Below, one piece after another: positions 12,599 to 61,968 of a stretch of 64,000 nucleotides of DNA. The stretch is from a virus. The first letter of the stretch is position 1. Every line of letters starts with the position of its first letter. The translations under genes and the position numbers were made by a program. The notes beneath the pieces are model-generated. The model saw only the letters and a program-made list of their open reading frames with translations, made no database searches and was not told the DNA's origin. The stretch is taken from IMG/VR virus record IMGVR_UViG_3300048997_000130, positions 132,677 through 196,676 of that record. The stretch is one strand, 5' to 3'.

Positions 12599-12745
12599 TA
12601 GTGGAGTTTAAGATTGCCGAGGGTTCGAGTAATCGGTCAATTTCCTCCATTAGTTTCCTGTTAGATGATTCATTTATAAATTTGTTTAATATCGAGAGCT
12701 CGACATCTTGTAAACGAATGGAATGGATTATCTAGACAGGAACCT

Positions 12746-13015
12746 ATGATATTTTTGAATTTTGGATATTTATTTGATACTGTGACAACGTCAAATAAAT
12801 TATCGATCAATCCAACTGTTCATCAATCAGGACATACTGTCCTTGATGAGCGTAATGCAAATTGGTTTAAGCGACTCCCTGTCCACAAGAAAGTGGACTA
12901 TTTTATCAAAAATGGGATGGGAATTCGAGCTATCGCTAAAGAACTGCATCTGCCTAAGAAGACAGTTCGAGCTATTCTGCATAGTAACGTTCTGAAGGAT
13001 GTCATGCAATCGTGA
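12746..13015 (+). CDS. helix-turn-helix protein with C-terminal tag
   Basis: GMGIRAIAKELHLPKKTVRAIL; ends VLKDVMQS. Confidence 0.7.
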   Translation: MIFLNFGYLFDTVTTSNKLSINPTVHQSGHTVLDERNANWFKRLPVHKKVDYFIKNGMGIRAIAKELHLPKKTVRAILHSNVLKDVMQS

Positions 13016-13135
13016 AGATTTAGTGAATAAGTTTGACGATTTTACGTATGCACATCCCTTGTTATCTTTGCCTATTGTAGTGGTTTTAGCCGTGTCTTTG
13101 CCCATTTATGTTTTCGCTGCTAAGCGAATTCTTAA

Positions 13136-13339
13136 ATGGCAGCGGTCATGAACTGGCAAGAATCTAAATCTTGGTGGTCATTGTCGAACGACGATAAAAA
13201 TCGACTTCGCTCTCGTATTCAAGAACTTCGCCAAGAAGGTTTCATGGTTCGTTCAATCGCTAAATGGCTTGGAATCACTCGTTTAGTTGTTCGAGATTGT
13301 TTGCATGAAATTTTGACATCAGAAATCATGGATTCTTAG
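13136..13339 (+). CDS. helix-turn-helix protein with C-terminal tag
   Basis: GFMVRSIAKWLGITRLVVRDCL; ends TSEIMDS. Confidence 0.7.
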   Translation: MAAVMNWQESKSWWSLSNDDKNRLRSRIQELRQEGFMVRSIAKWLGITRLVVRDCLHEILTSEIMDS

Positions 13340-13674
13340 TTTACAGCCATACTGCGTAGTCCTCGCTTTAGAGATTCGTTGGCTCGCAATATACCATCTT
13401 TGAATTCTTGGACTTGACCCGTACATGCTGCTAAAATAGCAGCACTTATCCATAACGTTGTATCTTGGATAATGTCTTGTGGTAAGTTAATATTAATGGA
13501 CGCGTCATTTATATTATCCAGCGCGTCACAAGCTCTCAACACAGTCCTAGGACCATCCAACTTTTCTAATTGTCTTAAATCATAAGCCACATTTGGCATG
13601 CCTCTTGATTCAAATATTATGGGCAAAAATGTGCGAATAATTATATCAGCTTTTGGGAGTAATATGTTTTTCAA
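13336..13674 (-). CDS. hypothetical protein
   Basis: 112-aa ORF convergent on 13136..13339. Confidence 0.55.
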   Translation of the reverse strand: MKNILLPKADIIIRTFLPIIFESRGMPNVAYDLRQLEKLDGPRTVLRACDALDNINDASININLPQDIIQDTTLWISAAILAACTGQVQEFKDGILRANESLKRGLRSMAVN

Positions 13675-16262: not shown

Positions 16263-16826
16263 ATGGCTAAATCGTTCGATTTTGATAAAGGCGTTGCAGC
16301 CATTTACGCGTCTGATGAATTTGCAACGATATCTAAGGGACTGGAATCCAGTATTAAATCTCTCAGATTTTCCGATGTCCGATTTGATGTATTCATACAG
16401 GAAAATAAATCTAAGTTAAAGATCAATGTAATATTTCTAATCCATGCAGGTGAATGCTCTGTTATAGCTCACCGCAATTTTAAGATCCGATGCAGACAAA
16501 TCATCGGGCCTTTGAACTTATTATTGCAATTTGGCCAAATCCTTGAACCATATTGTCAAAATATTCAAATTGATATTGTGAATCAATTCTTGGATACAAT
16601 GGATATTCGATTTGAAAGCATCATTGAAGAAGCCAGTATACGACTCCGGAATCAATTTTGTGAATATTTGGAAAAACCCTATTTTAAGCAAAAGAGAACA
16701 GAAGCTGTTGTAAGTTATGCTAAACAAGAAATGGATAAATTATTATCTATATTTTCTAATTTGGATTTTGAAACTTTGCAGTCTATATTTAATGAATCAA
16801 TGGTTCGTAATATAATGGAACAATAA
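16263..16826 (+). CDS. hypothetical protein, array B, tag family
   Basis: Ends FSNLDFETLQSIFNESMVRNIMEQ. Confidence 0.75.
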   Translation: MAKSFDFDKGVAAIYASDEFATISKGLESSIKSLRFSDVRFDVFIQENKSKLKINVIFLIHAGECSVIAHRNFKIRCRQIIGPLNLLLQFGQILEPYCQNIQIDIVNQFLDTMDIRFESIIEEASIRLRNQFCEYLEKPYFKQKRTEAVVSYAKQEMDKLLSIFSNLDFETLQSIFNESMVRNIMEQ

Positions 16827-16827
16827 T

Positions 16828-17442
16828 ATGAATGATCCTGTGATCAATAAAATGATAAGAAAAATTTGTTCTTATCCAGTTATTACAACAGTAATTAATA
16901 ATCATAAAGACATTATTATTAATTCAAAAATTATTGAATTCCAGTGCGAATCTGAACTCGGCATGACGCCCAGCAAATCGTTTGTCATTGCTACTACGTT
17001 ATACGCGATTGTTCAAATTTCTGAGCAGAATTATCTCATGGCATCTGAGACTATAGAATTACTCTTGGATTGGCATCCGTTTAAGGTTCAAGATATTATG
17101 CAATCGTTAGTCAATGAAGTTATCATTAAATGCGTTGAAGCGATAACTATCCAGTTCGATAGAATACTGACTGAGTCTGAATTATCATATGTTAAACTCC
17201 ATATCTATGACTTCATTAATACTACCAATTCCGAAGTTCTTAAGCAAAAATTTGATATGTTCAAAACCCAAACCAATGATTTCATAAAATCGGCTGCATT
17301 TGAACAACTACGTCGTAAGTCCACTATTAAAATTTTTGAATCATGTCTGCATGGATTCATGGGCGCATTTGAAAGCATTGATGATAACGTGATGCGCGCG
17401 GCTTTCAATTCATACTTTGTTCATACTATTATGGAATCCTGA
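16828..17442 (+). CDS. hypothetical protein, array B, tag family
   Basis: Ends FESIDDNVMRAAFNSYFVHTIMES. Confidence 0.75.
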   Translation: MNDPVINKMIRKICSYPVITTVINNHKDIIINSKIIEFQCESELGMTPSKSFVIATTLYAIVQISEQNYLMASETIELLLDWHPFKVQDIMQSLVNEVIIKCVEAITIQFDRILTESELSYVKLHIYDFINTTNSEVLKQKFDMFKTQTNDFIKSAAFEQLRRKSTIKIFESCLHGFMGAFESIDDNVMRAAFNSYFVHTIMES

Positions 17443-18117
17443 ATGCCATCGGCTATATCTCATAGAGACCCAGTCTATCATTATTTAGATATAGCCAATT
17501 TATTATATGAAACTGATACTATTCAACATTTAGTCAATTCATATATATCATATTTATCAAAATTAGAAGTTTGGGGGTTCACTATCGATTTTAATATTGT
17601 ATTGCGCAAGGGTTATGCTATGTTGTCGCCAAAAGTCCTAATGAATATTGGTCAATCTTGCAGTTCTGGGATTCTTGTTTATGATATGTATTCAGGAGCT
17701 TCTTTGCATACAATATTAAACTGTTCCAGTTTATCAATTATCTCGGACAAAATCTTACGTGGTGTTGTTACTAAATATGCAATAACTAAATATTCTGGTC
17801 AGGAATTAGAATTATTTATAACTCAATTTATGGCATATCAAGGTAACATTCAATTTTCCGGAGGATTCCCACAATTTGTGACTACTAAAATCAATAATAA
17901 TACTTCTTCGTTATTGAATGACACAGTCGTTCGATTATATGGAAAAATCGATGTTATCAAGAATAGTGCAGAATATAAAAAGCGCTACAACGAAGCTTTA
18001 GAAGAATCTGCTGAATATGATATTGGTCGATTACTAAATCTATATAAAGATGTTAAAAATTCAGTGCGACAAGAGATCCTTTCTAAATTCATTGTTACTT
18101 CAGTGATGACTGAGTAA
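17443..18117 (+). CDS. hypothetical protein, array B, tag family
   Basis: Ends YKDVKNSVRQEILSKFIVTSVMTE. Confidence 0.75.
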   Translation: MPSAISHRDPVYHYLDIANLLYETDTIQHLVNSYISYLSKLEVWGFTIDFNIVLRKGYAMLSPKVLMNIGQSCSSGILVYDMYSGASLHTILNCSSLSIISDKILRGVVTKYAITKYSGQELELFITQFMAYQGNIQFSGGFPQFVTTKINNNTSSLLNDTVVRLYGKIDVIKNSAEYKKRYNEALEESAEYDIGRLLNLYKDVKNSVRQEILSKFIVTSVMTE

Positions 18118-18149
18118 ATTCGGATTTTCAATTCATATAATATTTTGAC

Positions 18150-18824
18150 ATGGCATCCAGTTATCTCAGGATTTACGAACGATTATATATGACTCCTAAA
18201 TGTCAAAATATTATCGAAAATTTCCAATCGGCATTATCTTCGGCTAGAGTTTGTGACTACAAATTCAATGTTCGTATTGATAGCAATGATGATCTCATCA
18301 TTTCGCCGTCATTTAAAGTATCCGTTAGTCCATTCTTTGATAATTTCTCTGAACCACCAAATCGCAGACATTCTAATAATGACCATTTTTTCTCAATTGC
18401 TAGTCATTCTTACAATTTCATTTCACGAGATATTTTAGATAATATTGTTGATTATTATTGGTCCAATCCGAAAGGTTATTGGTCCAATCCGGGAAGCATT
18501 CCCACTTATGGATGCGATAAAGACGTCGTTAAAAAAGGTCGGAGTTTTACGGGGAAACGTAATGTTGATTCTTTCATAACATATTTTCGAGAGCGTGTTG
18601 ATGCAGAAACTAAAGAACTCCGGACTGAAGCCATAAATCGAACGTCCATTCAAATGGACGCCATGATATTGGATCCACAATTTGCTATTAAACGAGATGA
18701 AACAGTTGTGCATCATGCTCAAGCTGAAATTCGGAAAGTCTTGTCTATTTATAAACATCTTGGTGACGACGTACTCCGGACTGCTATTTCCAGTTTTGTA
18801 ATTGGTTCAGTTATGGACGAATGA
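18150..18824 (+). CDS. hypothetical protein, array B, tag family
   Basis: Ends YKHLGDDVLRTAISSFVIGSVMDE. Confidence 0.75.
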   Translation: MASSYLRIYERLYMTPKCQNIIENFQSALSSARVCDYKFNVRIDSNDDLIISPSFKVSVSPFFDNFSEPPNRRHSNNDHFFSIASHSYNFISRDILDNIVDYYWSNPKGYWSNPGSIPTYGCDKDVVKKGRSFTGKRNVDSFITYFRERVDAETKELRTEAINRTSIQMDAMILDPQFAIKRDETVVHHAQAEIRKVLSIYKHLGDDVLRTAISSFVIGSVMDE

Positions 18825-19240
18825 TGTTGAACCAGACTTTAATCCTTAATTATATACGTCGATCAGTAGATAATCTGATTATTTCGGAACCTGCTACTGA
18901 TATGTTTGTGTTAATTAAATTACAAGATAATAATGTGTTGTATCTTCAACAGTTAGGGCCGATTGAAGATAATGAACATGAATATTGGATATTGGAGCTT
19001 CGAAATCAATATAATGGAGTTTTGGAAGCTATTCGATTTAGTAAAGAAGTCCCATATGCTAGGATTATTAATAGTAGCTTTCATACAGACTGGGTTATGA
19101 AAGTCTATGAACATTTCACATTTGCAATCACGCATTTATTGTCAACAACCATTGATTCGCTTCATGCAGCCGGTCTGAATATTGAAGAAATAAATGACGA
19201 AGTTCGACATGTTGTGGTTTCAACAGTTATGAATAAGTGA
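18821..19240 (+). CDS. hypothetical protein, tag family
   Basis: Ends VRHVVVSTVMNK. Confidence 0.7.
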   Translation: MMLNQTLILNYIRRSVDNLIISEPATDMFVLIKLQDNNVLYLQQLGPIEDNEHEYWILELRNQYNGVLEAIRFSKEVPYARIINSSFHTDWVMKVYEHFTFAITHLLSTTIDSLHAAGLNIEEINDEVRHVVVSTVMNK

Positions 19241-19440
19241 TGCGTGCTAGTTATAAATTCGGAGTGCGCTGGATAGCAGAAAATGATGAACCCATCGCTC
19301 AAACTCCTGAAGACGCAGTCGGTTTAATATCTATCTTGCTTTTAGCTGATCTGTTTGGGAAAACGCCAGAGATAGTTGCTCGGGATGTTTTTGATTATAA
19401 GAACAAGATGCTGGTGATACGAGACGTTATGGAGTCGTAA
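19237..19440 (+). CDS. hypothetical protein, tag family
   Basis: Ends LVIRDVMES. Confidence 0.65.
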   Translation: MMRASYKFGVRWIAENDEPIAQTPEDAVGLISILLLADLFGKTPEIVARDVFDYKNKMLVIRDVMES

Positions 19441-19451
19441 ATTTTACGACT

Positions 19452-19667
19452 TTGTTGATTATTTATGCTACGATGAGTGATAGATTATTGTGCGGTGTTG
19501 GACTCGGATTATTTTCTGTGGCATTGTTTTTATATTTCATAATCTTGCCACAAACCTCGCCAGCTAAACGTCTCGGGCTGCATCGAGAAGTCATGTTGAT
19601 GATTCTCCTTGGAGTAGCCTTCATAGCTTCTACTTTAATTAGCTGGTGTGTTCGGAATCCAATATGA
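19452..19667 (+). CDS. small membrane protein
   Basis: Two hydrophobic segments. Confidence 0.55.
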   Translation: MLIIYATMSDRLLCGVGLGLFSVALFLYFIILPQTSPAKRLGLHREVMLMILLGVAFIASTLISWCVRNPI

Positions 19668-19987
19668 AACTGGTGGATTTGGAACCACAATTCTTGAAGG
19701 TTATTGATGCGGATTCTCATTGTTACGTAGATACGATTCTAGAAGCTCAAGGTTTATTGTTTTTGTGTCCATTATGTTTTATTAATAATAATGGTCCGAT
19801 TGGAACACATTCAATATTGACTTGGTTCCGTGATAGAGGCGTTCCAGACGATCAAATTCCCATCCCTGGCCGATGGATAATGTCTGGTTCCGATTATTCC
19901 AATTTGAATTTATATCCTTCCATCCAACTCACGCTTGGATGTAAATGGCACGGCAATATAATCAACGGTAATATTCAGATATTATGA
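19646..19987 (+). CDS. DUF6527-like Cys/His protein
   Basis: LFLCPLC...W...NLNLYPSI...CKWHGNIING pattern. Confidence 0.55.
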   Translation: MCSESNMKLVDLEPQFLKVIDADSHCYVDTILEAQGLLFLCPLCFINNNGPIGTHSILTWFRDRGVPDDQIPIPGRWIMSGSDYSNLNLYPSIQLTLGCKWHGNIINGNIQIL

Positions 19988-20385
19988 CATCTAAAGCTAA
20001 TATATGTTATAGTATACACACTATTATCAAGGAATTGATTCATAATATAGAAAGCCATGATATTATCTTATATAAATTCCCGTATAATGTATGTATTAAA
20101 TTTAGCATGAATTATACATCAAATATGCAAATCAAAATTTGGTCCTTAAGTTGGTCTCGTAATAATGTATTCCAATCCAACATTTGGATTGTAGATTCTA
20201 CCAGATTACCAGAAAATGTCCAATTATTTAATGCATTTTTAAATGAAATTGTTGATCAATTCATATTAGATATGGAATCGATTATTGATAATGCTATCGA
20301 TAATCTTGCACTATTAAATTTAGACGTATCATGTTTACATACAATGATTGATAAAGTTATTGTTAATAAAGTAATGATTACATAA
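19984..20385 (+). CDS. hypothetical protein, tag family
   Basis: Ends IVNKVMIT. Confidence 0.68.
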   Translation: MTSKANICYSIHTIIKELIHNIESHDIILYKFPYNVCIKFSMNYTSNMQIKIWSLSWSRNNVFQSNIWIVDSTRLPENVQLFNAFLNEIVDQFILDMESIIDNAIDNLALLNLDVSCLHTMIDKVIVNKVMIT

Positions 20386-20390
20386 ATTAT

Positions 20391-20954
20391 GTGTTGTATA
20401 TTATTGGAAGAATGAGTATATCAAAATTAACTGCAGAGTTGAAGGCAATACCATTATCTTCTACTATTGATGAATCAATATTTAATCAAATTATCCATGA
20501 ATGCCGCATTATAACGAAAATCCGATATCATTCATATAATGCAGTTTTAACCCCAGAATTAATCCCGATAATACGAGTTAGATATCGGACTCAACTTTTA
20601 CATCGGCGTGTGCAGCGTTTTTTTATTGCTGGACAACCCATAATTGATCAAATATTATATTCTTTTGAATTGCCGATTCGAACAGCTTTTAAATCGAAAA
20701 TCGAATTATTCCTTGCTGAATATATTGCAAAAATTGAATCTGACGTTCGACAATCTATAATTAAATCCGGTCAAGATGAAAAGTTCCAAGATAAAATCAG
20801 ATTTAGGCGTTTAGAACGTTATCATAAAATCCAATCGGAACAACAAGAAACATTATATACAGAAATTAAACGTGCTTTTGATATTGGAATCACTCGCGAT
20901 GCTATCGTTACTATCATAGATACTGTATGTTGCCAAATTACTCATGACGAGTGA
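20391..20954 (+). CDS. hypothetical protein, tag variant
   Basis: Ends GITRDAIVTIIDTVCCQITHDE. Confidence 0.68.
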   Translation: MLYIIGRMSISKLTAELKAIPLSSTIDESIFNQIIHECRIITKIRYHSYNAVLTPELIPIIRVRYRTQLLHRRVQRFFIAGQPIIDQILYSFELPIRTAFKSKIELFLAEYIAKIESDVRQSIIKSGQDEKFQDKIRFRRLERYHKIQSEQQETLYTEIKRAFDIGITRDAIVTIIDTVCCQITHDE

Positions 20955-48999: not shown

Positions 49000-49671
49000 A
49001 TGCGTTCTCGTGATTTTACTTTGATTTGTCGTGGTCCGCTGGCATGTTTCACGCGCGTCGAATTTCGAACAGACCGGCTTTCATATGAAGCCCCGACTCA
49101 TGCCGCATTAGTCGGAATGTTAGATCAATTTTTATCTAATTCCAAAATGATGTGGTCTGTCCATGAATGTCATATTTTGAAACCGATTCGCTGGATGAAT
49201 TTTTTGCGTAACGAACTCCTGTTCACTCAACTTAATAACGAAGTAGAGATCGGTAATACTATCAAACCAACGCAGCGCAATACTACTTGTTTACATGATG
49301 TCGAGTATAGATTCACAGCCCATTTTGAACTCACAGCCAAAGGCCAAGATAAATATTCTGATAATATTTATGGAGCTGTTCAAAAATATGAAACAATGTT
49401 TTTGAGTCATATGGCTTCAGGACATTTTGTGGGAAGTCTTCCATATTTCGGATTTCGTGAATTTGAAGCTGACGTATTTTTGGATAATGGAGAACATGGA
49501 ACATTCGGAGATGCCATAGATTTAGATTACGACGTTGGACTCATGCATCATAGCGTTGTAAAGACTTCGAAGAAATATAAAAATTATTTCTTCGATGCTA
49601 ATATTCGGAATGGAATTATTAAATATCCATCTCGCGCAGATGTATTAAATAAAAATATCGCTATTGGTTGA
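49000..49671 (+). CDS. cas5: type I-C Cas5 (Cas5c/Cas5d), divergent
   Basis: GPLACFTRVEFRTDRLSYEAPT, HILKPIRWMNFLRNE, LHDVEYRFTAHF, PYFGFREF. Confidence 0.88.
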   Translation: MRSRDFTLICRGPLACFTRVEFRTDRLSYEAPTHAALVGMLDQFLSNSKMMWSVHECHILKPIRWMNFLRNELLFTQLNNEVEIGNTIKPTQRNTTCLHDVEYRFTAHFELTAKGQDKYSDNIYGAVQKYETMFLSHMASGHFVGSLPYFGFREFEADVFLDNGEHGTFGDAIDLDYDVGLMHHSVVKTSKKYKNYFFDANIRNGIIKYPSRADVLNKNIAIG

Positions 49672-50993
49672 AAATTATGACTTTAAATGTTAATTTGCAC
49701 AAAGCCCTGATCAATTTAGCTGAACGTAAAAATTTAAATCCTACCCCATTCCGATCGAAGCATATTCAACTTCGAGTTTATTTCGATAAAAATGGGCAAT
49801 TAGATAAAGTCGTTGCAGACTCCAGTTCTTATTCATTGCCCGTTGAACAAGACAGAACAGCTCAAATTGCTCCTAACTTCGGATATGATTCTCCAAAATA
49901 TGTTGTGAGTACAGACTTAACACAAGCCGCTCCTAAGAGCGCTAAACCACAGTTATTTGAGGCATTTTATTCACAACTCCACCACAGCTTACTTAACTGT
50001 GGTGATCAAGCTCGAGCTTCAATTGTTTCCAAAATCATCAATCTTGGTCCTAAGACATTAAGCCGCCGATTTATTCAGTTACTATCTGGAGTGGATGTTA
50101 ATCCATCCCACATGTCTTGGATTTTGGTTGTCCTTGGAGACGATGCAGATCCGGTTGTCTTATTGAAAGATGTTCGAGATGATTGGGCTCACCAGTTTAA
50201 TAAAACTCTTGGATCTGGAACTCGTGCCACGTGCATGATAACTGGTAAAAAAGATGTTCCATGCAGCCGTGTTATGTCTAAAGCCCGAAAAATCCCTGGA
50301 GCTAATAAAGCTCCGTTGATATCATTCAATCAACCGGTTTTTTGTTATGAAGATAGAGTCCAAGGAGAAAATTTTCCTATCGCACGTGATGTTGATATCT
50401 CGTTAGCCAACGCTTTGACTTGGCTATTTGAACAATCAGAAAATCGACAACATAGGAATGGATTTTCATTTTGCGGATCGGATCCACGGCAACCAGCTGT
50501 TGCTATATGGGGAAGTTCGGATGATGCAGATTCAATTATCGAGAATATTTTAAATTTGGTTCAACTTCCTCGCTTGGGAGTTAAATCTGACGATTATTTG
50601 AAATGTTCTATGGCTTTTTATGATAAATGCTTAGAAGATCTCGAAAAAGCTTCGGATACTCAACATTGGGCTTATATTCTAGGCATCGTTGGTTCAAAAG
50701 GTCGAATTGCTATCACAGCTTGGTATCCGATTGCACTGCGTGATTTGATATCTTCGTTCTTTAAAGCGTTGGATATAATCCCCGACGCGAGACCATTCGG
50801 TCTTTTGAATGCATTACGTAAAATCACTGGAGAACATTTATCCGGTCAAGCTACTTCCCGATTATTGATTGATATACTGTCTGGGAACTCTTGGACATGT
50901 GAATTCCGAGAAGCCGCTTGGGCATACGCTAATATTGCTTATAAAGATATTCATTCGGTATCGAAATCTATTGAAATGGCTGGAAGGATTTAA
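49668..50993 (+). CDS. cas8c: type I-C Cas8c (Csd1), lacking the C-terminal Cas11 region (ATG 49677 likely start)
   Basis: RTAQIAPNFGYDSPKYV; CMITGK...LISFN...QGENFPI...LANALTWL. Confidence 0.8.
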   Translation: MKIMTLNVNLHKALINLAERKNLNPTPFRSKHIQLRVYFDKNGQLDKVVADSSSYSLPVEQDRTAQIAPNFGYDSPKYVVSTDLTQAAPKSAKPQLFEAFYSQLHHSLLNCGDQARASIVSKIINLGPKTLSRRFIQLLSGVDVNPSHMSWILVVLGDDADPVVLLKDVRDDWAHQFNKTLGSGTRATCMITGKKDVPCSRVMSKARKIPGANKAPLISFNQPVFCYEDRVQGENFPIARDVDISLANALTWLFEQSENRQHRNGFSFCGSDPRQPAVAIWGSSDDADSIIENILNLVQLPRLGVKSDDYLKCSMAFYDKCLEDLEKASDTQHWAYILGIVGSKGRIAITAWYPIALRDLISSFFKALDIIPDARPFGLLNALRKITGEHLSGQATSRLLIDILSGNSWTCEFREAAWAYANIAYKDIHSVSKSIEMAGRI

Positions 50994-50995
50994 TA

Positions 50996-51475
50996 ATGTC
51001 TAAGATTAATGTAAATGATGTGGTTGACGTATCTAATTTTTACAAGGCAAATGACGTTCATATCGGATATCATTTGGGCGCATTGATTGCAGTTTTCAAT
51101 CGCCTTCAGTTAATAGGTCTTCGAGGTCGTCGCCCTGGGAACGGATTTAGTTCTAAATTGGGAGTAATTTCCCTCAATCCGTCTCAAATCGTATATCTGG
51201 AAGATCGTGCGGTTACATATTTGGAATCGGCAGACAAAAAACCGGCTTGTCGTCCGTTAGTGTTTTTGGCAAGACAAATTCAGTCTAAAATTCATGAAAT
51301 GGGAATCCCTATTTATTTTCATGATATGGCCAATCAACATGCTGTTTATGCTGGTCATGCAGATATTTGTAAATATTTGAATGCTCGAGCTGAATTTTTC
51401 CAAGACGATAAAGAAGAAATCGAAACTGCGACTGCATCAGACGACGCGGTTTCCAGTGTACCTATGACTAATTGA
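50996..51475 (+). CDS. cas11: free-standing Cas11c-like small subunit
   Basis: GYHLGALIAVFNRLQ resembles the Cas8c C-terminal AYxLGRLFAVLExxQ motif; lies between cas8c and cas7 in a different frame. Confidence 0.65.
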   Translation: MSKINVNDVVDVSNFYKANDVHIGYHLGALIAVFNRLQLIGLRGRRPGNGFSSKLGVISLNPSQIVYLEDRAVTYLESADKKPACRPLVFLARQIQSKIHEMGIPIYFHDMANQHAVYAGHADICKYLNARAEFFQDDKEEIETATASDDAVSSVPMTN

Positions 51476-51520
51476 TTGAATTTATACGAATCTAAATTTA
51501 TACGGAGATAATTATTTATT

Positions 51521-52510
51521 ATGGCAAACGCATTTGATATCTATGATCCAGTTCGAGAAGATTTGATGAAGTTGGCACAAGACCGGACTCCGCTCCAAAA
51601 ACGACGGGATCTGTGTGTTATTGTTGAAGTGCCGGCCGGCGTGATTGCTCAAGGCGATCCAGATATGGATAACATGCCACGCATGGATCCAATCAATCGA
51701 CGTGGTTTTATGACTGATAGTGGTTTGAAGCGTCAGATTCGCGATGCGGCAGTGTTACATATGTATGACATTCCTGGTTATGATGTATTTGTAACGCGTC
51801 GAGCTGTTCAAAATTTGAAAACTGAAGCATTATGCTCTACGCTTGGCATTACAGCACCAAGTGGTGAAGAAGAAGTTGAAGAAGATGACGACTCCAAAGA
51901 CGTTGTTAAGAGTGAGAAGAAACCGGGCAAGAAACCGAGCAAAAAAGCCCGATTCAATGGTGATAACATTGAATTGCTACATAAAGGTTTGTGTGAGAAA
52001 TACTTTGATGTGAGAGCATTCGGACAAGTAACTGGTACTGAGCCTATCCGTGCTCCATTTGTAGTCACCATGGGCTGGAGCGTATCCCCGATTGTGCGCA
52101 ACATCATCAGTATCACCAACGTCTCGGTCCGAACCGAACGCGAAGCTGATAAACAAAATAATCAGAATCGTACGATGGGCAAGCGTCCATATAATGGATA
52201 TGGATTATACGTATTCCATGTCATGGCTGATGTTTATCAAGCACGCCGTTGTGGATTCAGTGAAGGTGATTTTGCTGTCACAGTTGAATTGCTGCGTCGA
52301 GCTTGGCAAGAACGAACTTCAACATCCAAGCTTGGAATGAATGTGCGTCAAATTGCATGTTTTGAGCACGAAGGTGCTGGACGAGCTCTGCCAGCTGCAA
52401 TTTATCGATTAGTAAAAATCCAGTCCAATACGGAAAATCCGATGTGTTGGGAGGATTATACTATTGATGTTGATGCTCCGCCCAACGGCGTACAATTTAG
52501 TTGGCTGTAA
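51521..52510 (+). CDS. cas7: type I-C Cas7 (Csd2)
   Basis: QGDPDMDNMPRMDP, GFMTDSGLKRQIRD, YFDVRAFGQV, NRTMGKR...YGLY. Confidence 0.92.
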   Translation: MANAFDIYDPVREDLMKLAQDRTPLQKRRDLCVIVEVPAGVIAQGDPDMDNMPRMDPINRRGFMTDSGLKRQIRDAAVLHMYDIPGYDVFVTRRAVQNLKTEALCSTLGITAPSGEEEVEEDDDSKDVVKSEKKPGKKPSKKARFNGDNIELLHKGLCEKYFDVRAFGQVTGTEPIRAPFVVTMGWSVSPIVRNIISITNVSVRTEREADKQNNQNRTMGKRPYNGYGLYVFHVMADVYQARRCGFSEGDFAVTVELLRRAWQERTSTSKLGMNVRQIACFEHEGAGRALPAAIYRLVKIQSNTENPMCWEDYTIDVDAPPNGVQFSWL

Positions 52511-52522
52511 ATTACTAGACTA

Positions 52523-54724
52523 ATGCAACCGCATGCTTATCAACAGCGTGATTTGGATGACTTGCTTGAAGCTGCCAAATCACATCGTAGACTAGCTGTT
52601 GTTCACGCAACAGGGGCTGGTAAGACATTAGTATCAACCCTGTTCGTGCAGAACACACTTGGAAGTTTGTTCACGCATGTGATTAGTGCTACTCCAATGG
52701 ACAGCATCCGAGTTGGATTTGAGCGTGCTATGTATGATATTGGAGCACGAACAGGTTCATCATGGAACGAACTTGTGCATTATTTGCAAGCCGATTCTCT
52801 AGCAAATGTGAGTTATATATGTTGTCACGCATCTATTAATAGACAAGATTCTATATATCAACTACGCCAGTTATTGGACTCCCGTCCCGATTTTTTAAAT
52901 GGCAAACTACTGATTGTTGACGAAGCCCAACACGCTGGTGCTGATGGTTTGTCGGAGTTCGTCGAGCTTTGGTATCAAGGTGGCGGTCATATCCTATATT
53001 TAACCGCCACCCCATATCGAAGTGATGGCCGAACAGTGATTCCTGAAGGAACATTCACTGTATATCGGACAATGTGTCAACAAATGCGGAATGGTTTTGC
53101 TCCTCGAATACTTTGTAGCGAAATCATTGACGTGGGTGGAAAGTTTGTTGAATGTGCTGGCGTAGTTGGTGCTCCGGAAGCCATTGCGAAAACCGCAGAT
53201 GCAATGGTGAGCACTTGGGATAAAGACAAACGCCCATTCTTGATCATTCGAGTCAAGAATCATTCGGATAGTGGATATAACAAACGCGTAATCAACACGC
53301 TTGTCCAGAAATTTTCGGATAGCGGAGCACGTGTTCTGAATGCCACAGATCATCAAACTGAATCGTGTGTGGTTGAACTCCGGAATTTATTGCAGAAAAC
53401 TTCCGAAGGGATTCCGACTCACGACGTAATTATCGGGATCCAAAGAGTGGCTGAAGGACTGGACTGGCCAATTTGTTCCCACATTTATTTATGGGGAGTT
53501 CCCAAGTCATTGCCCATGCTCGTTCAAATTCTTGGACGAGCGATGCGAAGGAAATCTGGGATTGTGGCCGAACAGTGGCGTGATTGTTCCAAATTAGTAT
53601 TATTCACTGCCGGGGTAAATGCGTTAGCACATAGTCGATATATATTACTCACTGCTTATTTACTTTCGGATTTTGCATCCAGCCGTCATATGTCAGCATT
53701 CGAAGAATTGCACGGGCTCATTGATGGACTCCCTGTCCCTGTGCGCCGAGCCGCTAGTGCTGGGCTCTCTTATATCCATGTGCCTGAAGATCTCAGGCAA
53801 GCTATTCGTATTCGAATTGACGCTATATTCAATCGGTTTCGAGACGATCCCGCACGTATTTCTCCGAGACAATTATTGGAAGTGTTGATCCCAGAATTCC
53901 CGGAGCTTTCCAAGAAAGCCGTCCAGCAATTAGTATTGGAGACTTATATGTCTTCAAATCCCAAGGCATTGAATTTGTTCCGAGAACAGCTGCAAGACCG
54001 ATTGTTGTCTGGGAATGATATATCTAAAACTCTGAATGACGCTGTGGAATCAGTACTCATGGAATTTCGTGAGGAAACTATTATTGTTCCACAAAGCCTC
54101 ATAACGTGCCAGATGCATGGGCTTTCTGGAGAATCCATTCAACTGCATTCAGACAAATTACGGCTATATTTATCACCATTATCCGAACAAGATATGTTGC
54201 GTGGTTTTGATCATTTCTTCAGGACTTACAAGCGTTTCCCAAATTTAGGAGATGTGAATCCTATAAACCCATTATATACGTTCGAAACTTATGACAGAGC
54301 GCTTCGTGACGGTGATCGCAGTCTTAAGCAAGTAGACGGCGGATTCCGGCAAGTTGTGCATGAAAGATTCTGGAAGACGCATTCGGTTGGTTCGAATGCT
54401 ACTTGGGCTGAATTATGTGATGATATTCTAGAAAGACTTAAAGATGTTCCGGATCCTAGAAAGATCATGCAACATATTCAAAATACTGGTTGCCCGACGT
54501 TCCATTATTATGGTGCGATTTACAAAGCTTCAGAATTTTTAGAAGTCGCAGATTTATTGAAATTCGGACCGGACGTTGCAGAGTGTATGCTTAAATTAAG
54601 TAAAGTACGATTAAATAAATGTTTGGAAGAACTTATTCAGGCGGAAAGTCCTGAAGATGCTCTTCAAGTCTTATATGCACAGTTCCCTAATAAGACACGT
54701 CCAGACCAACGTCTGGCTTCTTAA
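52523..54724 (+). CDS. SF2 (DEAH-type) helicase without HD nuclease, with a long C-terminal extension
   Basis: PHAYQ, HATGAGKT, IVDEAQH, LTATP, VAEGLDWP, QILGRAMR; the Q-motif is at the extreme N-terminus, so there is no room for a Cas3 HD domain. Confidence 0.85.
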   Translation: MQPHAYQQRDLDDLLEAAKSHRRLAVVHATGAGKTLVSTLFVQNTLGSLFTHVISATPMDSIRVGFERAMYDIGARTGSSWNELVHYLQADSLANVSYICCHASINRQDSIYQLRQLLDSRPDFLNGKLLIVDEAQHAGADGLSEFVELWYQGGGHILYLTATPYRSDGRTVIPEGTFTVYRTMCQQMRNGFAPRILCSEIIDVGGKFVECAGVVGAPEAIAKTADAMVSTWDKDKRPFLIIRVKNHSDSGYNKRVINTLVQKFSDSGARVLNATDHQTESCVVELRNLLQKTSEGIPTHDVIIGIQRVAEGLDWPICSHIYLWGVPKSLPMLVQILGRAMRRKSGIVAEQWRDCSKLVLFTAGVNALAHSRYILLTAYLLSDFASSRHMSAFEELHGLIDGLPVPVRRAASAGLSYIHVPEDLRQAIRIRIDAIFNRFRDDPARISPRQLLEVLIPEFPELSKKAVQQLVLETYMSSNPKALNLFREQLQDRLLSGNDISKTLNDAVESVLMEFREETIIVPQSLITCQMHGLSGESIQLHSDKLRLYLSPLSEQDMLRGFDHFFRTYKRFPNLGDVNPINPLYTFETYDRALRDGDRSLKQVDGGFRQVVHERFWKTHSVGSNATWAELCDDILERLKDVPDPRKIMQHIQNTGCPTFHYYGAIYKASEFLEVADLLKFGPDVAECMLKLSKVRLNKCLEELIQAESPEDALQVLYAQFPNKTRPDQRLAS

Positions 54725-55353
54725 TGTCTCATATTAAACATAACTTTGTTGGAGAAGAAAAGCGCTCCTGGAGGATGCGCAATTTAGAATTTTTACTGCG
54801 TCATCAATCTGATTTATTACTCGAAAATAAGCTTCGAGGTTCCTATATGGAGCTTATTGGAATGAGTGGTAGTGAATTCTATGCATTATTGACGCCATAT
54901 TTACAAAAGCCAACAGATTTTATAGCTGTGGATAGATGTTGTCGAGTTATCCTTGATCATAGGGAAGACATGTCAGCATTTAAGACTATTTTTTCAACCA
55001 GTATTATTGCTGTTGCGCAACGAGAAATACCTATAATACTCAATTATGATGGATATGGGTCAGCCAACAGTCCAAGCTTTTGGAAAAAAGAAAGCTTTGG
55101 AATACAAGATGTAATCCATAAAGGTATCAAAAAATATGGGTGTTTTGCATTTATTTTAAATAAAGTGCTTGGCAAAGCAGATAACGAAACTACACACAAG
55201 ACGTTGTTGGGTTTCAAACAAAAAATCCTCGAACTTGGTCATGGATTTCGCATGTTAGATGCTTTTGAACCAAGTTCTGATTGTATGATTCTAGATATAT
55301 ATCGGGGTAATGGCCCTAGGATGATTACTTTTCGTACATTATTTGTTCGATAA
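54724..55353 (+). CDS. hypothetical protein, possible class I SAM-methyltransferase-like fold
   Basis: TAATG-coupled to the helicase; SYMELIGMSG (beta1/motif I-like), FIAVDR (acidic end of beta2), ILNYDGYG (beta4), terminal YxGxGPRM. Confidence 0.4.
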   Translation: MSHIKHNFVGEEKRSWRMRNLEFLLRHQSDLLLENKLRGSYMELIGMSGSEFYALLTPYLQKPTDFIAVDRCCRVILDHREDMSAFKTIFSTSIIAVAQREIPIILNYDGYGSANSPSFWKKESFGIQDVIHKGIKKYGCFAFILNKVLGKADNETTHKTLLGFKQKILELGHGFRMLDAFEPSSDCMILDIYRGNGPRMITFRTLFVR

Positions 55354-55702
55354 TCATCCCTTGTTTTTTGACAAATTATGCGTTGATGCGATTATCGGAA
55401 AATCGTTGATCAACGAATATCTTTAATCAGCTCCCATAAGCCGTAGGTCAGAATTATAATTCTACTTGCGAAGATTAACTAAGTTATTTCTTGAGCTTTC
55501 AGGGACGTTGCAAAGATATTTATGATTTTTTGTGGTGGTTTAACCACCACTTGATTAAATTATTTGGTGCGAGTGATCCAATAATTATTAATTATGCTGG
55601 ATGCTCGATCCCAATCAAGAATATACTGAATTTTAATATTCATGTAATTTCTCGCAGGAAATTTTCGAAGAAAATTTCCGACAATTATTGTTGAATATCT
55701 TT
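55354..55702 (+). promoter_or_regulatory. CRISPR leader-like AT-rich region with a candidate sigma70 promoter and two palindromes
   Basis: TTGACA 55368 with TGcGATTAT 16 nt later; GTGGTGGTT-T-AACCACCAC 55532..55550; GGAAATTTTC-GAA-GAAAATTTCC 55657..55679. Confidence 0.45.
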
Positions 55703-56176
55703 GTAACAATGGATTATTATCCATTGTGGTTATTGAAATTTTCCAGTGCACGTAACAAGTCGTGAGTGGCCCGAGAAGTAACAATGGATTATTATCCATT
55801 GTGGTTATTGAAATCCAAAGGCACCGGTTCGCTCCCGTTGGGCATAGAGGTAACAATGGATTATTATCCATTGTTGGTTATTGAAATTCAATCCTGATGA
55901 TCGGTTCCCGTGGGAAGATGAGTAACAATGGATTATTATCCATTATAGTTATTGAAATTCAGCTTGCTCAACCGCCCATTCGAAAGCCACCTTGGTAACA
56001 ATGGATTATTATTCATTATAATTATTGAAATCGACCATCGCGTCCCACAGCAAGGTCTTCGAGACGGTAACAATGGATTATTATCTATTATAATTATTGG
56101 AATCGACGATGGAACAACGTGTACCGGGATTTACGCAAAGTAACAATGGATAATGATCCATTATAATTATTGAAAG
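55703..56176 (+). CRISPR. CRISPR array, intact part: 7 repeats of 37-38 nt, 6 spacers of 34-38 nt
   Basis: Repeat GTAACAATGGATTATTATCCATTGTGGTTATTGAAAT at 55703, 55778, 55850, 55922, 55995, 56067, 56140; stem ACAATGGAT/ATCCATTGT; ATTGAAAT 3' end. Confidence 0.97.
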
Positions 56177-58621
56177 GTGGTGTCCTGGGTAACAATGTTT
56201 GTTAATGATAGTAATAATGGATAATGATTGAAATTACCTGCCAGCGAACCAGCGAACTCGGGAATCCTGATAATACCTGATAATAATGGATAATAATTGA
56301 AAGTAAAGAGCTCTGACGAGGGACGTCGTGCAGTAACCATAATTATTTGAAATTATGTGATCGGCAGCCAGACTAATCACGAGGATCAAAGTAACAATAG
56401 ATAATGATTGGAAGAGCTTAAGCTCGCGGGCAGCAACGGTTGGACTCGTGTAATAATGATTGAAAGCCTTCTACGCGCCGGCTTCAAAAATATAATGGAT
56501 CATGATCCATTATTACGATTGGGAAGGCGCTGCATCTGCACCAACAATTCCTGATTATTATGATTGGAAGGACTCGACGACGAGAATCGCAAGCTTTTGG
56601 CTGCAAGTTATGGTTGGAAGAGCTTCGCGAAATGCTGAATGTTGGACGACTATTTTTTGGAGATAACAATAGATCATTATCTATCATAATTAATTGGAAT
56701 CTCAAGGTGCAAAAATAGCCAACTAATGATCACTAGATAATGAATGAATGAAAGAAAGAACGGACGAAATTGCAGTAGACTGAGTCATATGGGACAGATA
56801 AATAGTGGACTATTCACAATGATTGGAATCAAAACGGACAGCCTTCCCGGCAGAGAACCGGATTGCGAATGGTAAGTTAATAGTAGATTATGATTGAAAG
56901 ACCTGAAAAGCGATATGGCCCTGTCAATGATTGAAATTAGGCCTTAATCGCATCTATTATATAAATATTGAAATGGCTTACGCTTTCGGATTGATAATGA
57001 TTGGAATATGTAGTCCTTACCTCTATGTTTGGTGTTAATGATCAATAATTATTGGAATTAACTGCGGAAAAAGAAGACAATATATGAATAATTGGAATCT
57101 GCCGACACATAAGCGATTTCCTGGATAATATATTTATTGAGATAAGGTTCGTTCTGCGCGGTGTGTTATCTTCAATAATATGATTTAATGATTGGGAAAC
57201 AGTGATTCACACCCGGAAAATCAGATAATCTCATTATTAATGAATATGACTAATGTGTATCATCTTGGACCTCAAGTTTAATAAATAATTATGTTGGAAA
57301 AGGCCTATCCAATCGTTTCCCCAAGATAAAATAGATTGGAATATGAGGCGAGATAGCACTCATAATAATGTTTGGAAAGCTGGGGATATGCGATACATAT
57401 AGGATATAGCGCCGCATAGATTATTACTGATTGGAACGGGTAGCCAAGCTTCCATCCCTTAGATTCTCAAGATATTTAGAATCTTGAATCAATATATACG
57501 TTCCGGATTTTGATATTAACTGGAATAATTTTATAAAATTGATTGATATATCATATATTGAAATAAAAGCGGGCTGTTCTCCCTGACATTTATTATTGCA
57601 ATATGATTGCGATCCCTCCAGGCTTGGCTAGAACTGATTGTAATTCTAGTGTTCAATTGGTGGAGTGGTAAACGCGTTTATAATTTATTAGCATTCAATG
57701 ATTGGAATGTGTAAGTAACAGTATATATGATATCGTGCAAGCATTGGAACCAGCGGAAGATTTCGATTCTGATTCAGAGCTGATTGGAAAGATGTCGCCA
57801 TATCATTGGAATAGTAATCAAACGGACTGCGTTGAGGTCAATTGATTGGAATCTGGCCCATTAGCATTAGTTGAATCAACATGATTGGAATAGACGAGAA
57901 AAGTATGCAGATACTGAATTGTCCATATCGGAATCATGCTTAGGAGTCGCTGTCATTATCTATTGAAACTTGCCTATGGATGCCCAAACCATTTGAAATA
58001 GATTGAAATACAATTGCATGATCTGGGATTATTTGATTATGTCCAAATTTGAAATCCATGTATTGGAAAACTTTTGCCACTCGTCTGCATGACTGGAGCG
58101 TTTTCAAAATTTAATCATATTTATTGGAAAACAGCGGATAGGTCTGTTGATCATTATTGGAATCCGCCAATGGACTGGCAATGTCCGGTTCTTGAATCCA
58201 GTTATTGGAATTAGAACAGTATGGCTCCGTTCAGTGCAGAATTTGGGACTCCAATATCTAATTATTGAAACCACCTCTAGATGATGGAGTCAGTGGATGA
58301 TTATTTGTATTGAAATGGGATTACATCATGCATAATATCAAAGTCCCATTATGAATTGGAATTGGTCGAGGAACTGCACCATTAGCAATCAATTGGAAAG
58401 GGTATGGCTCGATATATATTGATTGGAATAGACCCGAAAACTCGGCTGATGGTGCCTATTTCATTATTGGAATAGAAACGGTGTCACACTAAATTGGAAT
58501 TCGAACGACGGTTGTCTTGTTCCGGATTCAAATATATAAGGTTGCACATTAATTGAGATATGTATACGACCACCCGATACTAGGCTCGAATGTTCAACTG
58601 ATCGGAATAATCGATTGGAAT
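56177..58621 (+). CRISPR. degenerate, handle-only continuation of the array (about 50 units by hand count)
   Basis: Truncated repeats (24, 24, 21, 24, 17 nt), then recurrent ATGATTGGAAT/ATTATTGAAAT motifs mostly every 30-60 nt, usually followed by GC-richer unique sequence; no ORFs beyond short shadows. Confidence 0.75.
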
Positions 58622-58657
58622 TGGTAATGAATACCTGGGCTCGGAAATATTACGTGA

Positions 58658-61244: not shown

Positions 61245-61326
61245 GTGGATGCTGGGCATTGGCGAGCCCAACGGTTTGTAATCCCGCCGCTTTTTAGCTG
61301 TGTAGGTTCGAATCCTGCCATCCACA
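61245..61326 (+). tRNA. trnY: tRNA-Tyr(GUA), weak anticodon stem
   Basis: GTGGATG/CATCCAC acceptor, GGGC..GCCC D-stem, TT-GTA-AT loop, long variable arm, GGTTCGAATCC. Confidence 0.7.
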
Positions 61327-61375
61327 CTAAACGGAAGCGGAAGCGCAAATGAAAAAGCATAAAATCGGGATATAA

Positions 61376-61400
61376 GGATCTGTAGCACAATGGCAACGTA
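61376..61400 (+). pseudogene. 5' part of a split tRNA-Lys-like gene
   Basis: GGATCTG-TA-GCACAATGGCA; its acceptor strand pairs with CGGATCC at 61585..61591. Confidence 0.55.
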
Positions 61401-61403
61401 AAT

Positions 61404-61475
61404 GGGCTTGAAATGTAATGGTTGCATACCGGCCTTTTAAGCCGTGAAGAGCGGGATCAATACCCGTCAAGCCCA
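61404..61475 (+). tRNA. trnK: tRNA-Lys(UUU)
   Basis: GGGCTTG/CAAGCCC acceptor, CCGGC-CTTTTAA-GCCGT anticodon arm, T-loop GATCAAT. Confidence 0.82.
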
Positions 61476-61550
61476 CGACTAGTATTTAATTGACTAACTA
61501 AACTATGATATCAAACGAATGAAAGATAGATTCTTGAATCAAATATCTAA

Positions 61551-61592
61551 TTTTTAACCGGAAGGTTGTGAGTTCAAGTCTCACCGGATCCA
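61551..61592 (+). pseudogene. 3' part of a split tRNA-Lys(UUU)-like gene
   Basis: TTTTTAA-CCGGA-AGGTT-GTGAG-TTCAAGT-CTCAC-CGGATCC-A. Confidence 0.65.
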
Positions 61593-61597
61593 CTCTC

Positions 61598-61670
61598 GAG
61601 TCTGTAGCTCAATGGGTAGAGCCACTAATTCTTAATTAGTAGGTTGGAGGTTCAATTCCTCTCAGATTCA
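61598..61670 (+). tRNA. trnK: tRNA-Lys(CUU)
   Basis: GAGTCTG/CAGATTC acceptor, GCTC..GAGC D-stem, ACTAA-TTCTTAA-TTAGT anticodon arm. Confidence 0.9.
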
Positions 61671-61723
61671 CTTCTTCAAACACAAGTAGGATCGGTTGTC
61701 ATAGAAACAATATTCAACAATAT

Positions 61724-61794
61724 TCGGGACTCGTCTAAAGGCAGGACATCTCCCTTTGAAGGAGAACATCGTGGTTCGAATCCACGGTCCCGAA
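61724..61794 (+). tRNA. trnQ: tRNA-Gln(UUG)
   Basis: TCGGGAC/GTCCCGA acceptor, TCTCC-CTTTGAA-GGAGA anticodon arm, CGTGG-TTCGAAT-CCACG. Confidence 0.92.
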
Positions 61795-61892
61795 CTGATT
61801 CAAGCCGCGTTGTGGCCTTGATCTATGACATCATAAAACGGCGTGACGACGGAATCCAAATAATCGGAGTCTGTGTCAGTCTCCCGTGGAAT

Positions 61893-61968
61893 GGGGATGT
61901 GGAGGAGAGGTTGTCCTCGCCTGTTTGTCAAACAGGAGATTTCGCGGGTTCGAATCCCGTCATCCCCG
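61893..61968 (+). tRNA. trnD: tRNA-Asp(GUC)
   Basis: GGGGATG/CATCCCC acceptor, CCTGT-TTGTCAA-ACAGG anticodon arm, GCGGG-TTCGAAT-CCCGT. Confidence 0.92.

Follow-up and report, generated by a model that had tools for sequence, protein, structure and literature searches.

We analysed the final 64 kb (the window; positions 132,677 to 196,676) of IMG/VR virus record IMGVR_UViG_3300048997_000130, a single contig of 196,676 bp with 40% GC. The window contains a cas operon of six genes (49000-55353) and, immediately downstream on the same strand, the only CRISPR array in the genome. The operon and the array are derived from type I-C; the encoded proteins are Cas5, a split Cas8c/Cas11, Cas7, a superfamily 2 (SF2) helicase in the position of Cas3, and a conserved accessory protein. 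The array starts with ordinary repeats and continues as a long tail. This tail is derived from CRISPR, and each of its units consists of a unique spacer remnant and the part of the repeat that forms the 5' handle of the CRISPR RNA (crRNA). The stretch is best explained as the older, leader-distal part of the phage's own array. The features of the locus are as follows.

49000..49671, plus strand: cas5 (Cas5c/Cas5d-like, 223 aa; Pfam PF09704, E 5e-12)
49668..50993, plus strand: short cas8c (N-terminal part, 441 aa; Pfam PF09709, E 4.5e-29)
50996..51475, plus strand: probable cas11 (separate C-terminal part of Cas8c, 159 aa; assigned by position in the operon)
51521..52510, plus strand: cas7 (Csd2-like, 329 aa; Pfam PF05107, E 6.6e-46)
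52523..54724, plus strand: SF2 helicase (733 aa) in the place of Cas3 (matches to ResIII, DEAD and Helicase_C)
54724..55353, plus strand: final gene of the operon, a conserved accessory protein of 209 aa (homologues 3' of the helicase)
55354..55702, plus strand: AT-rich leader (GC about 0.30-0.34), occupying the space between the operon and repeat 1
55703..56176, plus strand: array head, seven 37-nt hairpin repeats and six 34-38-nt spacers
56177..56720, plus strand: transition zone, repeats with internal deletions (24, 21 and 17 nt) and two full-length diverged repeats
56721..58621, plus strand: handle-only tail, about 38 units, each formed by AWTKATTGRAAT and unique 20-30 nt

The leader contains a promoter-like site at 55368-55395. 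Repeat 1 consists of a 9-bp stem and 12 nt ending ATTGAAAT. This is the structure of a type I-C repeat, in which the stem-loop is followed by an 11-nt tail ending ATTGAAA-N, the 5' handle, and cleavage by Cas5 is predicted. The spacers of the array as a whole are unique; the leader flanks it on one side, and the neighbouring cas genes share its strand. In the head, just repeats 1 and 2 are identical, and the hairpin is weaker from repeat 4 onward (-11.1 kcal/mol in repeat 1, -3.6 in repeat 5, -6.1 in repeat 7). In repeats 4-7 (55922-56167), the 3' hairpin arm has become TATAAT through G-to-A changes, so that each of these repeats contains a promoter-like GTAACA-N16-TATAAT.

The 24-nt repeat forms of the transition zone end at 56234, 56303 and 56414, and the 17-nt form ends at 56466. 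The repeats with internal deletions still carry the 5' end of the repeat; 8-mers from the repeat 5' end occur 5-6 times in the zone versus 0.3 expected. The two full-length diverged repeats lie at 56489-56526 and 56663-56700. The former has a 9-bp stem of altered sequence (-7.9 kcal/mol); the shortened forms do not fold (0 kcal/mol versus -11.1 for repeat 1).

The consensus of the tail is ATTGGAAT versus ATTGAAAT in the head, and therefore the tail represents an older variant of the repeat and not a copy of the present one. Only the first seven repeats have constant length and nearly identical sequence, and 45 further units share just 8-12 nt. The latter were counted with a 12-nt position weight matrix of the handle AWTKATTGRAAT (threshold of at least 8 bits), which finds 52 sites on the plus strand, 7 of them in the canonical repeats and 45 in 56177-58621. 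There are no sites on the minus strand, where about 1.9 per 2.45 kb are expected by chance. All 43 exact copies of the core ATTGRAA in 55690-58630 lie on the plus strand and none on the minus strand, against a genome background of 0.55 per kb per strand. The inter-handle sequences are unique throughout the array. GC content of the guide segments is 0.55-0.58 in the first 13 units and then stays flat at 0.46-0.48 (0.40 in the genome). Two units, 57884-57912 and 58422-58450, have the same handle and a similar guide start (81% identity over 31 nt); this sole sign of related guides is not significant in the all-against-all comparison.

These data confirm the array of handles and spacers noted in the first-pass annotation, which had been made from the same sequence. 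The drop of the unit period from 71-75 nt in repeats 1-7 is real: the tail has a median of 45 nt, with 20 of its 45 spacings between 30 and 50 nt, a regularity that random placement reached in 0 of 5000 simulations, while a few handles are only 10-22 nt apart. The proposed shrinkage of the repeat from 37 to 24 to 17 to 8-12 nt is present as a series, and the short forms have no hairpin. The reported AT-rich sequence before the handle and GC-richer sequence after it are seen as GC of 0.11-0.31 some 5-12 nt upstream of the ATTG core and about 0.5 in the approximately 20 nt after the handle. As for the claimed number of about 50 compact units, the dense series of handles stands, but the weight matrix lowers the count to about 45. 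The term "short spacers" is roughly right, as a unit contains about 20-30 nt of unique sequence.

New units join the array at its leader end carrying a 37-nt hairpin repeat; farther from the leader, the hairpin and the 5' part of the repeat disappear. This loss affects one side of the repeat and halts at the last 8-12 nt, the part that forms the crRNA 5' handle in type I-C.

The tail is the largest gap free of open reading frames (ORFs) in a 197-kb genome about 90% of which is covered by ORFs. It measures 1952 nt; the next gap, 340 nt, is also within the array, and the maximum elsewhere is 335 nt. A coding role of the tail was rejected, as no ORF of at least 60 aa lies inside it on either strand. 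No convincing terminator was found between the array and the next gene. The model of the fluoride riboswitch has a weak match in the tail at 58391-58465 (19.9 bits versus the gathering threshold of 34, E 0.079), most likely by chance.

The retention of the handle was compared with neutral expectations in several ways. An unbiased 8-mer scan of 56721-58630 found the last 8-mer of the repeat (one mismatch allowed) 32 times versus 2.9 expected, and 8-mers from the repeat 5' part and the hairpin 0-2 times versus about 1 expected, that is, at background. Half-site ascertainment, which conditions on one half of the handle and reads the divergence in the other, gave a divergence of about 6-8% per site for the 7-nt core. 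The four positions preceding the core match the consensus in just 46-72% of the units, and further upstream the match is at background. In a neutral simulation with microhomology-mediated deletions and AT-biased substitutions, which reduced array length to 60%, the repeat lost its middle part, and the 5' and 3' ends were kept about equally (60-67%). Hence neutral slippage does not explain the observed asymmetry of 1 versus 32. Handle scores are no lower at greater distance (Spearman -0.16, p 0.30), and 17 of 18 handles in the farthest third have exact cores; therefore, the decay stops at the handle.

Several other sources of the pattern were considered. No second motif besides the handle is enriched in the tail, and a hidden second motif was thus rejected. 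Tandem duplication as the origin of the units was rejected as well, since there is no guide-to-guide similarity either in the window or in the sister locus described below. A promoter in each unit was rejected: the handle is preceded by only a weak nATAAT remnant, and a -35 element is lacking. Promoter-like matches are in excess in the tail because of AT richness and of the TTGRAA within the handle.

Taken together, the scan, divergence, simulation, distance, uniqueness, composition and motif tests point to selection or a strongly one-sided process acting on the handle. The handle is spared beyond the expectation of the neutral slippage model. The first-pass annotation had claimed selective sparing of the repeat 3' end and had named a neutral model as the possible refutation. 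The slippage simulation does not produce handle-biased retention, and the claim is supported by the 3'/5' asymmetry, by the flat handle quality and by recurrence in a related locus.

The latter is L143, from an ENA scaffold of 420 kb. Over 21.3 kb it has the same sequence as L142, from a 94-kb JGI contig, and so the locus has been assembled twice independently. The gene order of L143 is the same as in the window, including homologous helicase and accessory proteins, and the proteins are 22-27% identical. Its repeat is GC-rich and unrelated in sequence to the repeat of the window. The array consists of three intact 37-nt repeats, a few repeats with variant hairpins, and then about 70 handle-only units extending to approximately 20860; full-length diverged repeats and intermediates are interspersed in 16368-16700. 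The conserved block is a sharp 12 nt, GGARATTRYAAW, formed by the 11-nt single-stranded tail of the repeat and one base of the stem. There are 78 handle sites on the plus strand versus 4 on the minus strand. Over 4.2 kb, 8-mers of the hairpin are at background, and windows from the repeat 3' end occur 25-56 times versus 1-3 expected. Thus the same handle-only end state arose in a distant relative with a different repeat. As a distantly related phage has a similar tail, the tail looks like a retained, unusual guide format and not like plain decay.

The spacing of handles in L143 is quantised. In 16600-20860 it clusters at 29-31, 35-37, 41-43, 59-60, 65-67, 72 and 78 nt. A scan of periods from 3 to 15 nt gave the best period of 6.0 with phase 0, and the periodicity is significant (Rayleigh p 1.8e-5; P 5e-5 with the jitter null) and strongest in the most distal half. 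The guides of L143 are unique, so duplication is not the cause of this 6-nt comb. One Cas7 subunit covers a step of 6 nt along the crRNA. For the first-pass proposal of minimal guides, the comb in L143 is an indirect point in favour, and the lack of a comb in the window tail is a point against.

Other members of the family were sought in several ways. An exhaustive search for Cas8c, via short Cas8c proteins, retrieved loci with the gene order of the window, in which the helicase and accessory proteins are 22-31% identical. This order is common to L129, L130, L143 and the contig of protein P0154. The sequence of L129 ends within the first repeat, and on the contig of P0154 the accessory gene is followed by about 1.9 kb without called genes. 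No close relatives were found by Cas7 in viral contigs, by the repeat pattern in viral, metagenome and genome contigs, or by Cas7 and the helicase in the phage collection. Homologues of the helicase at 30% identity are not located beside Cascade genes. A search of viral contigs for three spaced handles returned only simple tandem repeats or coding repeats.

Two further loci have arrays of a different appearance. L126, on a phage-like 52-kb contig, contains just Cas5, the split Cas8c/Cas11 and Cas7, without the helicase. Its array (12739-13627) is irregular and comprises about 16 units with spacing of 35-86 nt. The handle GGTTTGYAAY is invariant, and the hairpins vary in sequence yet fold; they were folded singly, as the stems differ in length, and 5 of 9 z-scores are at most -2.6. 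The 6-nt comb is absent from L126. L130, on a 512-kb virus contig, has two regular arrays with a common repeat 3' end and different hairpins. In both loci, L126 and L130, the repeat is invariant in the handle and varies in the hairpin sequence. At two sites of L130, 15716-15739 and 17767-17782, the 8-nt handle ATTGAAAC is tandemly duplicated (three and two copies, respectively) directly after the repeat, which demonstrates that slippage of the size of the handle does occur.

For the operon of the window, the best NCBIfam models for Cas5, Cas8c and Cas7 are TIGR01876, TIGR01863 and TIGR02589, all under the curated cutoffs; the Cas5 score with TIGR01876, 81.5 bits, is slightly below the cutoff of 85. 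The best relatives of Cas5 among solved structures are type I-C Cas5 chains. Cas8c aligns to positions 7-356 of 559 in the PF09709 profile, and its nearest relative among 1.84 billion cluster representatives has 28% identity. The probable Cas11 has no family match of its own in Pfam or NCBIfam; the ORF in the same position matches PF09709 (Cas_Csd1) in L126 and L129. The closest relatives of Cas7 are canonical I-C Cas7 proteins (35% identity). The predicted effector is thus of type I-C (Cas5c, Cas8c and Cas7/Csd2, no Cas6), with a split Cas8c.

The 733-aa helicase has no match to an HD family in the Pfam scan; canonical relatives have Cas3_HD. More generally, the ORFs scanned between 47.6 kb and the array have no match to the Cas3 HD nuclease family, and in this respect the operon departs from type I-C. 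No Cas1, Cas2 or Cas4 was found in the nine ORFs between 47635 and the array and the first ORF beyond it, the rest of the genome being outside the scan with Cas1/Cas2 profiles. Homologues of the helicase occupy the equivalent position in L129, L130 and L143 (E 1e-16 to 1e-41), and in the same three loci they are followed by homologues of the accessory protein (239-250 aa, E 1e-5 to 4e-17). The accessory protein has no matches in Pfam, NCBIfam or PHROG and no homologues in the word index. Its Atlas model resembles class I S-adenosylmethionine methyltransferase folds (TM 0.60-0.66); a separate AlphaFold model was too poor (pLDDT 39) and was not used.

The likely explanation, to which we assign a probability of about 0.55, is that the tail functions as a set of putative hairpin-less guides kept by selection. 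A long transcript would start at the leader and run through the array, and the effector would still read it, so that the handle and the first 20-30 nt of each spacer would be maintained by selection. Each handle would be a binding site for Cas5, and the 18-30 nt after it would be covered by Cas7 in 6-nt steps. The outcome would be short Cascades on guides without hairpins. Indeed, shortened crRNAs assemble Cascades with fewer Cas7 subunits (PMC5159557). The ends of the guides would not be formed by Cas5 cleavage at hairpins; they could be trimmed by host ribonucleases (RNases) or left joined like beads on a string. A precedent for crRNA maturation by host RNases is the type III-Bv system of Synechocystis (PMC12464536). 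The loss of most of the repeat would also shield an array that cannot easily re-acquire spacers from recombination between repeats, and degenerate repeats are known to resist recombination (PMC9458426). As the operon has no recognisable nuclease, the guides would bind their targets and not cut them; this lack of nuclease genes is the single observation from which non-cleaving, regulatory targeting might be predicted.

A more general form of this proposal is tentative. The I-C-variant family may use a hairpin-less handle of 11-12 nt with a short guide, read by Cas5 and Cas7 along one transcript in a 6-nt register. It is likewise possible, though we would not count on it, that no Cas endonuclease cut is involved and that a compact, recombination-proof locus yields dozens of short Cascades capable of binding only.

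Several results weigh against functional hairpin-less guides. The hairpin needed for canonical Cas5c cleavage is gone, and no alternative signal that could form the 5' end was found. The 6-nt comb is absent from the window tail (R 0.10, P 0.64). The handles are not selected for accessibility, as far as can be seen from predicted single-strandedness, which is 0.439 versus 0.443 with shuffled spacers. The drop of guide GC after the first 13 units suggests that the guide sequences themselves could drift. No targets were found: the guides score level with shuffled guides against the phage's own genome, the whole array has no significant match in the phage collection, the first 22-26 nt of spacers 1 and 2 have 0 matches in viral, metagenome and genome contigs, and none of the guide sets matches the family loci compared. 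Finally, the related loci do not all behave in the same way. The old units of L126 are clearly under selection and retain their hairpins, so hairpin loss is not the rule in this I-C-variant family, and L130 has ordinary regular arrays with no decayed tail.

Several of these results would be expected if the array were dead and the tail a non-functional fossil, in which hairpins were deleted at the palindromic AT-rich body of the repeat and the handles were left because of the short time elapsed or some one-sided bias. The loss of hairpins should indeed make Cas5 processing fail, and the missing comb, targets and extra accessibility, as well as the lower guide GC of older units, agree with a dead array. 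Microhomologies inside the repeat account for the steps from 37 to 24 to 17 nt, and the handles lying 10-22 nt apart are what slippage would give. However, the simulated slippage preserves the two ends of the repeat equally often, and the observed counts are about 1 for the 5' end versus 32 for the 3' end. Nor does this explanation fit the sharp drop of conservation just upstream of the handle and the steady quality of the handles with distance. The same end state was reached in L143 from an unrelated GC-rich repeat, with spacing quantised by 6 nt, and a 2.4-kb relic would be odd in a genome whose other gaps do not exceed 340 nt. We therefore consider a fossil unlikely, though it deserves to be taken seriously. 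A transcript serving as a decoy or regulator is rather improbable. It would soak up Cas5 and Cas7, either of a host I-C system, as an RNA anti-CRISPR, or of the phage itself, setting the level of the effector, and the sequence between handles would be irrelevant. This agrees with the conservation of the handle alone and with guide segments that drift in composition and have no targets. Precedents exist for phage RNAs that resemble repeats or crRNAs and hijack Cas proteins (PMC10651486; bioRxiv 10.1101/2024.10.29.618823). On the other hand, the known repeat-mimic RNAs retain the hairpin, and no physical break separates the tail from the working array and cas operon of the phage itself. Moreover, the unique GC-richer segments have been retained and not deleted, and the regular spacing and the comb in L143 point to an ordered loading of Cas7, needless for a simple sponge.

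The remaining two explanations dispense with decay of the repeat or with RNA guides. The units could have been born short, if an earlier mode of integration duplicated just the 3'-terminal 12 nt or so of the first repeat. The upstream edge of the conserved block is indeed sharp, especially in L143, and the unit size is fairly uniform; given the two-step chemistry of integration, staggered cuts inside the repeat would leave its 3' part in older copies. However, the graded intermediates with internal deletions in 56177-56720 keep the 5' end of the repeat, full-length diverged repeats are interspersed both there and in 16368-16700 of L143, and there are no integrase genes in the ORFs scanned nearby, which makes this origin very improbable. 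A short motif repeated many times on one strand of non-coding DNA could also be an array of DNA binding sites for partition, packaging or replication, with the 8-12-nt motif unrelated to RNA guides. We give this hardly any credence: the motif is the repeat 3' end and develops from the CRISPR array without a break, in each member of the family it equals the end of that member's own repeat, and the GC skew has no inflection at the array region.

The passages on huge phages in Al-Shayeb et al. 2020 (PMC7162821) describe type I-C variants that have a Cas5d-like Cas5, no Cas1 and Cas2, and a helicase instead of Cas3. The cas genes of the window fit this phage variant as described there: the genome is viral, the Cascade genes are I-C-like, Cas1 and Cas2 are missing from the ORFs scanned, and the helicase is not Cas3. 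The arrays differ. According to the same passages, phage arrays are compact, with a median of six repeats, and the window has a 7-repeat head and about 45 more units. Handle-only tails are not mentioned in the relevant passages of that paper, and neither handle-only arrays nor a natural quantisation of unit lengths turned up in our literature searches.

Among the classes compared (trailer decay, CreA/CreR/Cracr and RNA anti-CRISPRs), the tail matches none. Ordinary decay at the trailer end affects one or a few repeats. As in such decay, the repeats of the window become more divergent farther from the leader, with the greatest changes in the oldest units, but about 45 units (70 in L143) have lost all but the 3' handle, and the first-pass statement that ordinary trailer decay looks different from this tail holds. 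CreA, CreR and viral Cracr RNAs have degenerate repeats and spacer-like parts of 21-24 nt, and direct Cascade to bind without cleavage (PMC9458426; bioRxiv 10.1101/2024.10.29.618823). The window tail shares with them the degenerate repeats and the short spacer-like parts. However, they have one to three spacers, a processable hairpin and known promoter targets, whereas the window has about 45 units and a tail without hairpins. RNA anti-CRISPRs mimic the full repeat including the hairpin, whereas the hairpin part is at background in the window tail.

In the type II-C systems of Neisseria, promoters are carried by the repeats. These systems form guide ends by transcription start, and Synechocystis III-Bv by host enzymes, in both cases without hairpin cleavage by Cas6 or Cas5, but they belong to other CRISPR types and have full-length repeats. 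A promoter of the Neisseria kind in each unit is not supported in the window, where only the weak remnant before the handle is seen. The dependence of Cascade length on crRNA length, via the number of Cas7 subunits, has been established with engineered type I-E and I-F crRNAs (PMC5159557), and Cascades of altered stoichiometry on shortened or extended crRNAs are treated in other studies (PMC5009729, PMC6859484, PMC4937334). The 6-nt comb of L143 would reflect the same dependence, but in a natural array.

If the units of the tail are used, the "compact" phage arrays may far exceed the size reported by array finders, and maps of phage-phage and phage-host conflict that are based on spacers would be incomplete. 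Standard CRISPR finders would report such loci as mini-arrays of 3-7 repeats, should the guide format be real. Cascade would then be programmable from units of approximately 40 nt with a 12-nt handle and no processing hairpin, and the tail would offer a natural layout for multiplex guide arrays that are dense and stable against recombination. The quantisation in L143 predicts Cas7 counts of 3, 4, 5 and so on per unit. If the tails are fossils, they still are an unusually long readable record of the decay of a CRISPR array.

Approximately 2.6 kb downstream of the array, the window contains five tRNA genes on the plus strand (61245-61968; Rfam RF00005, 38-69 bits).

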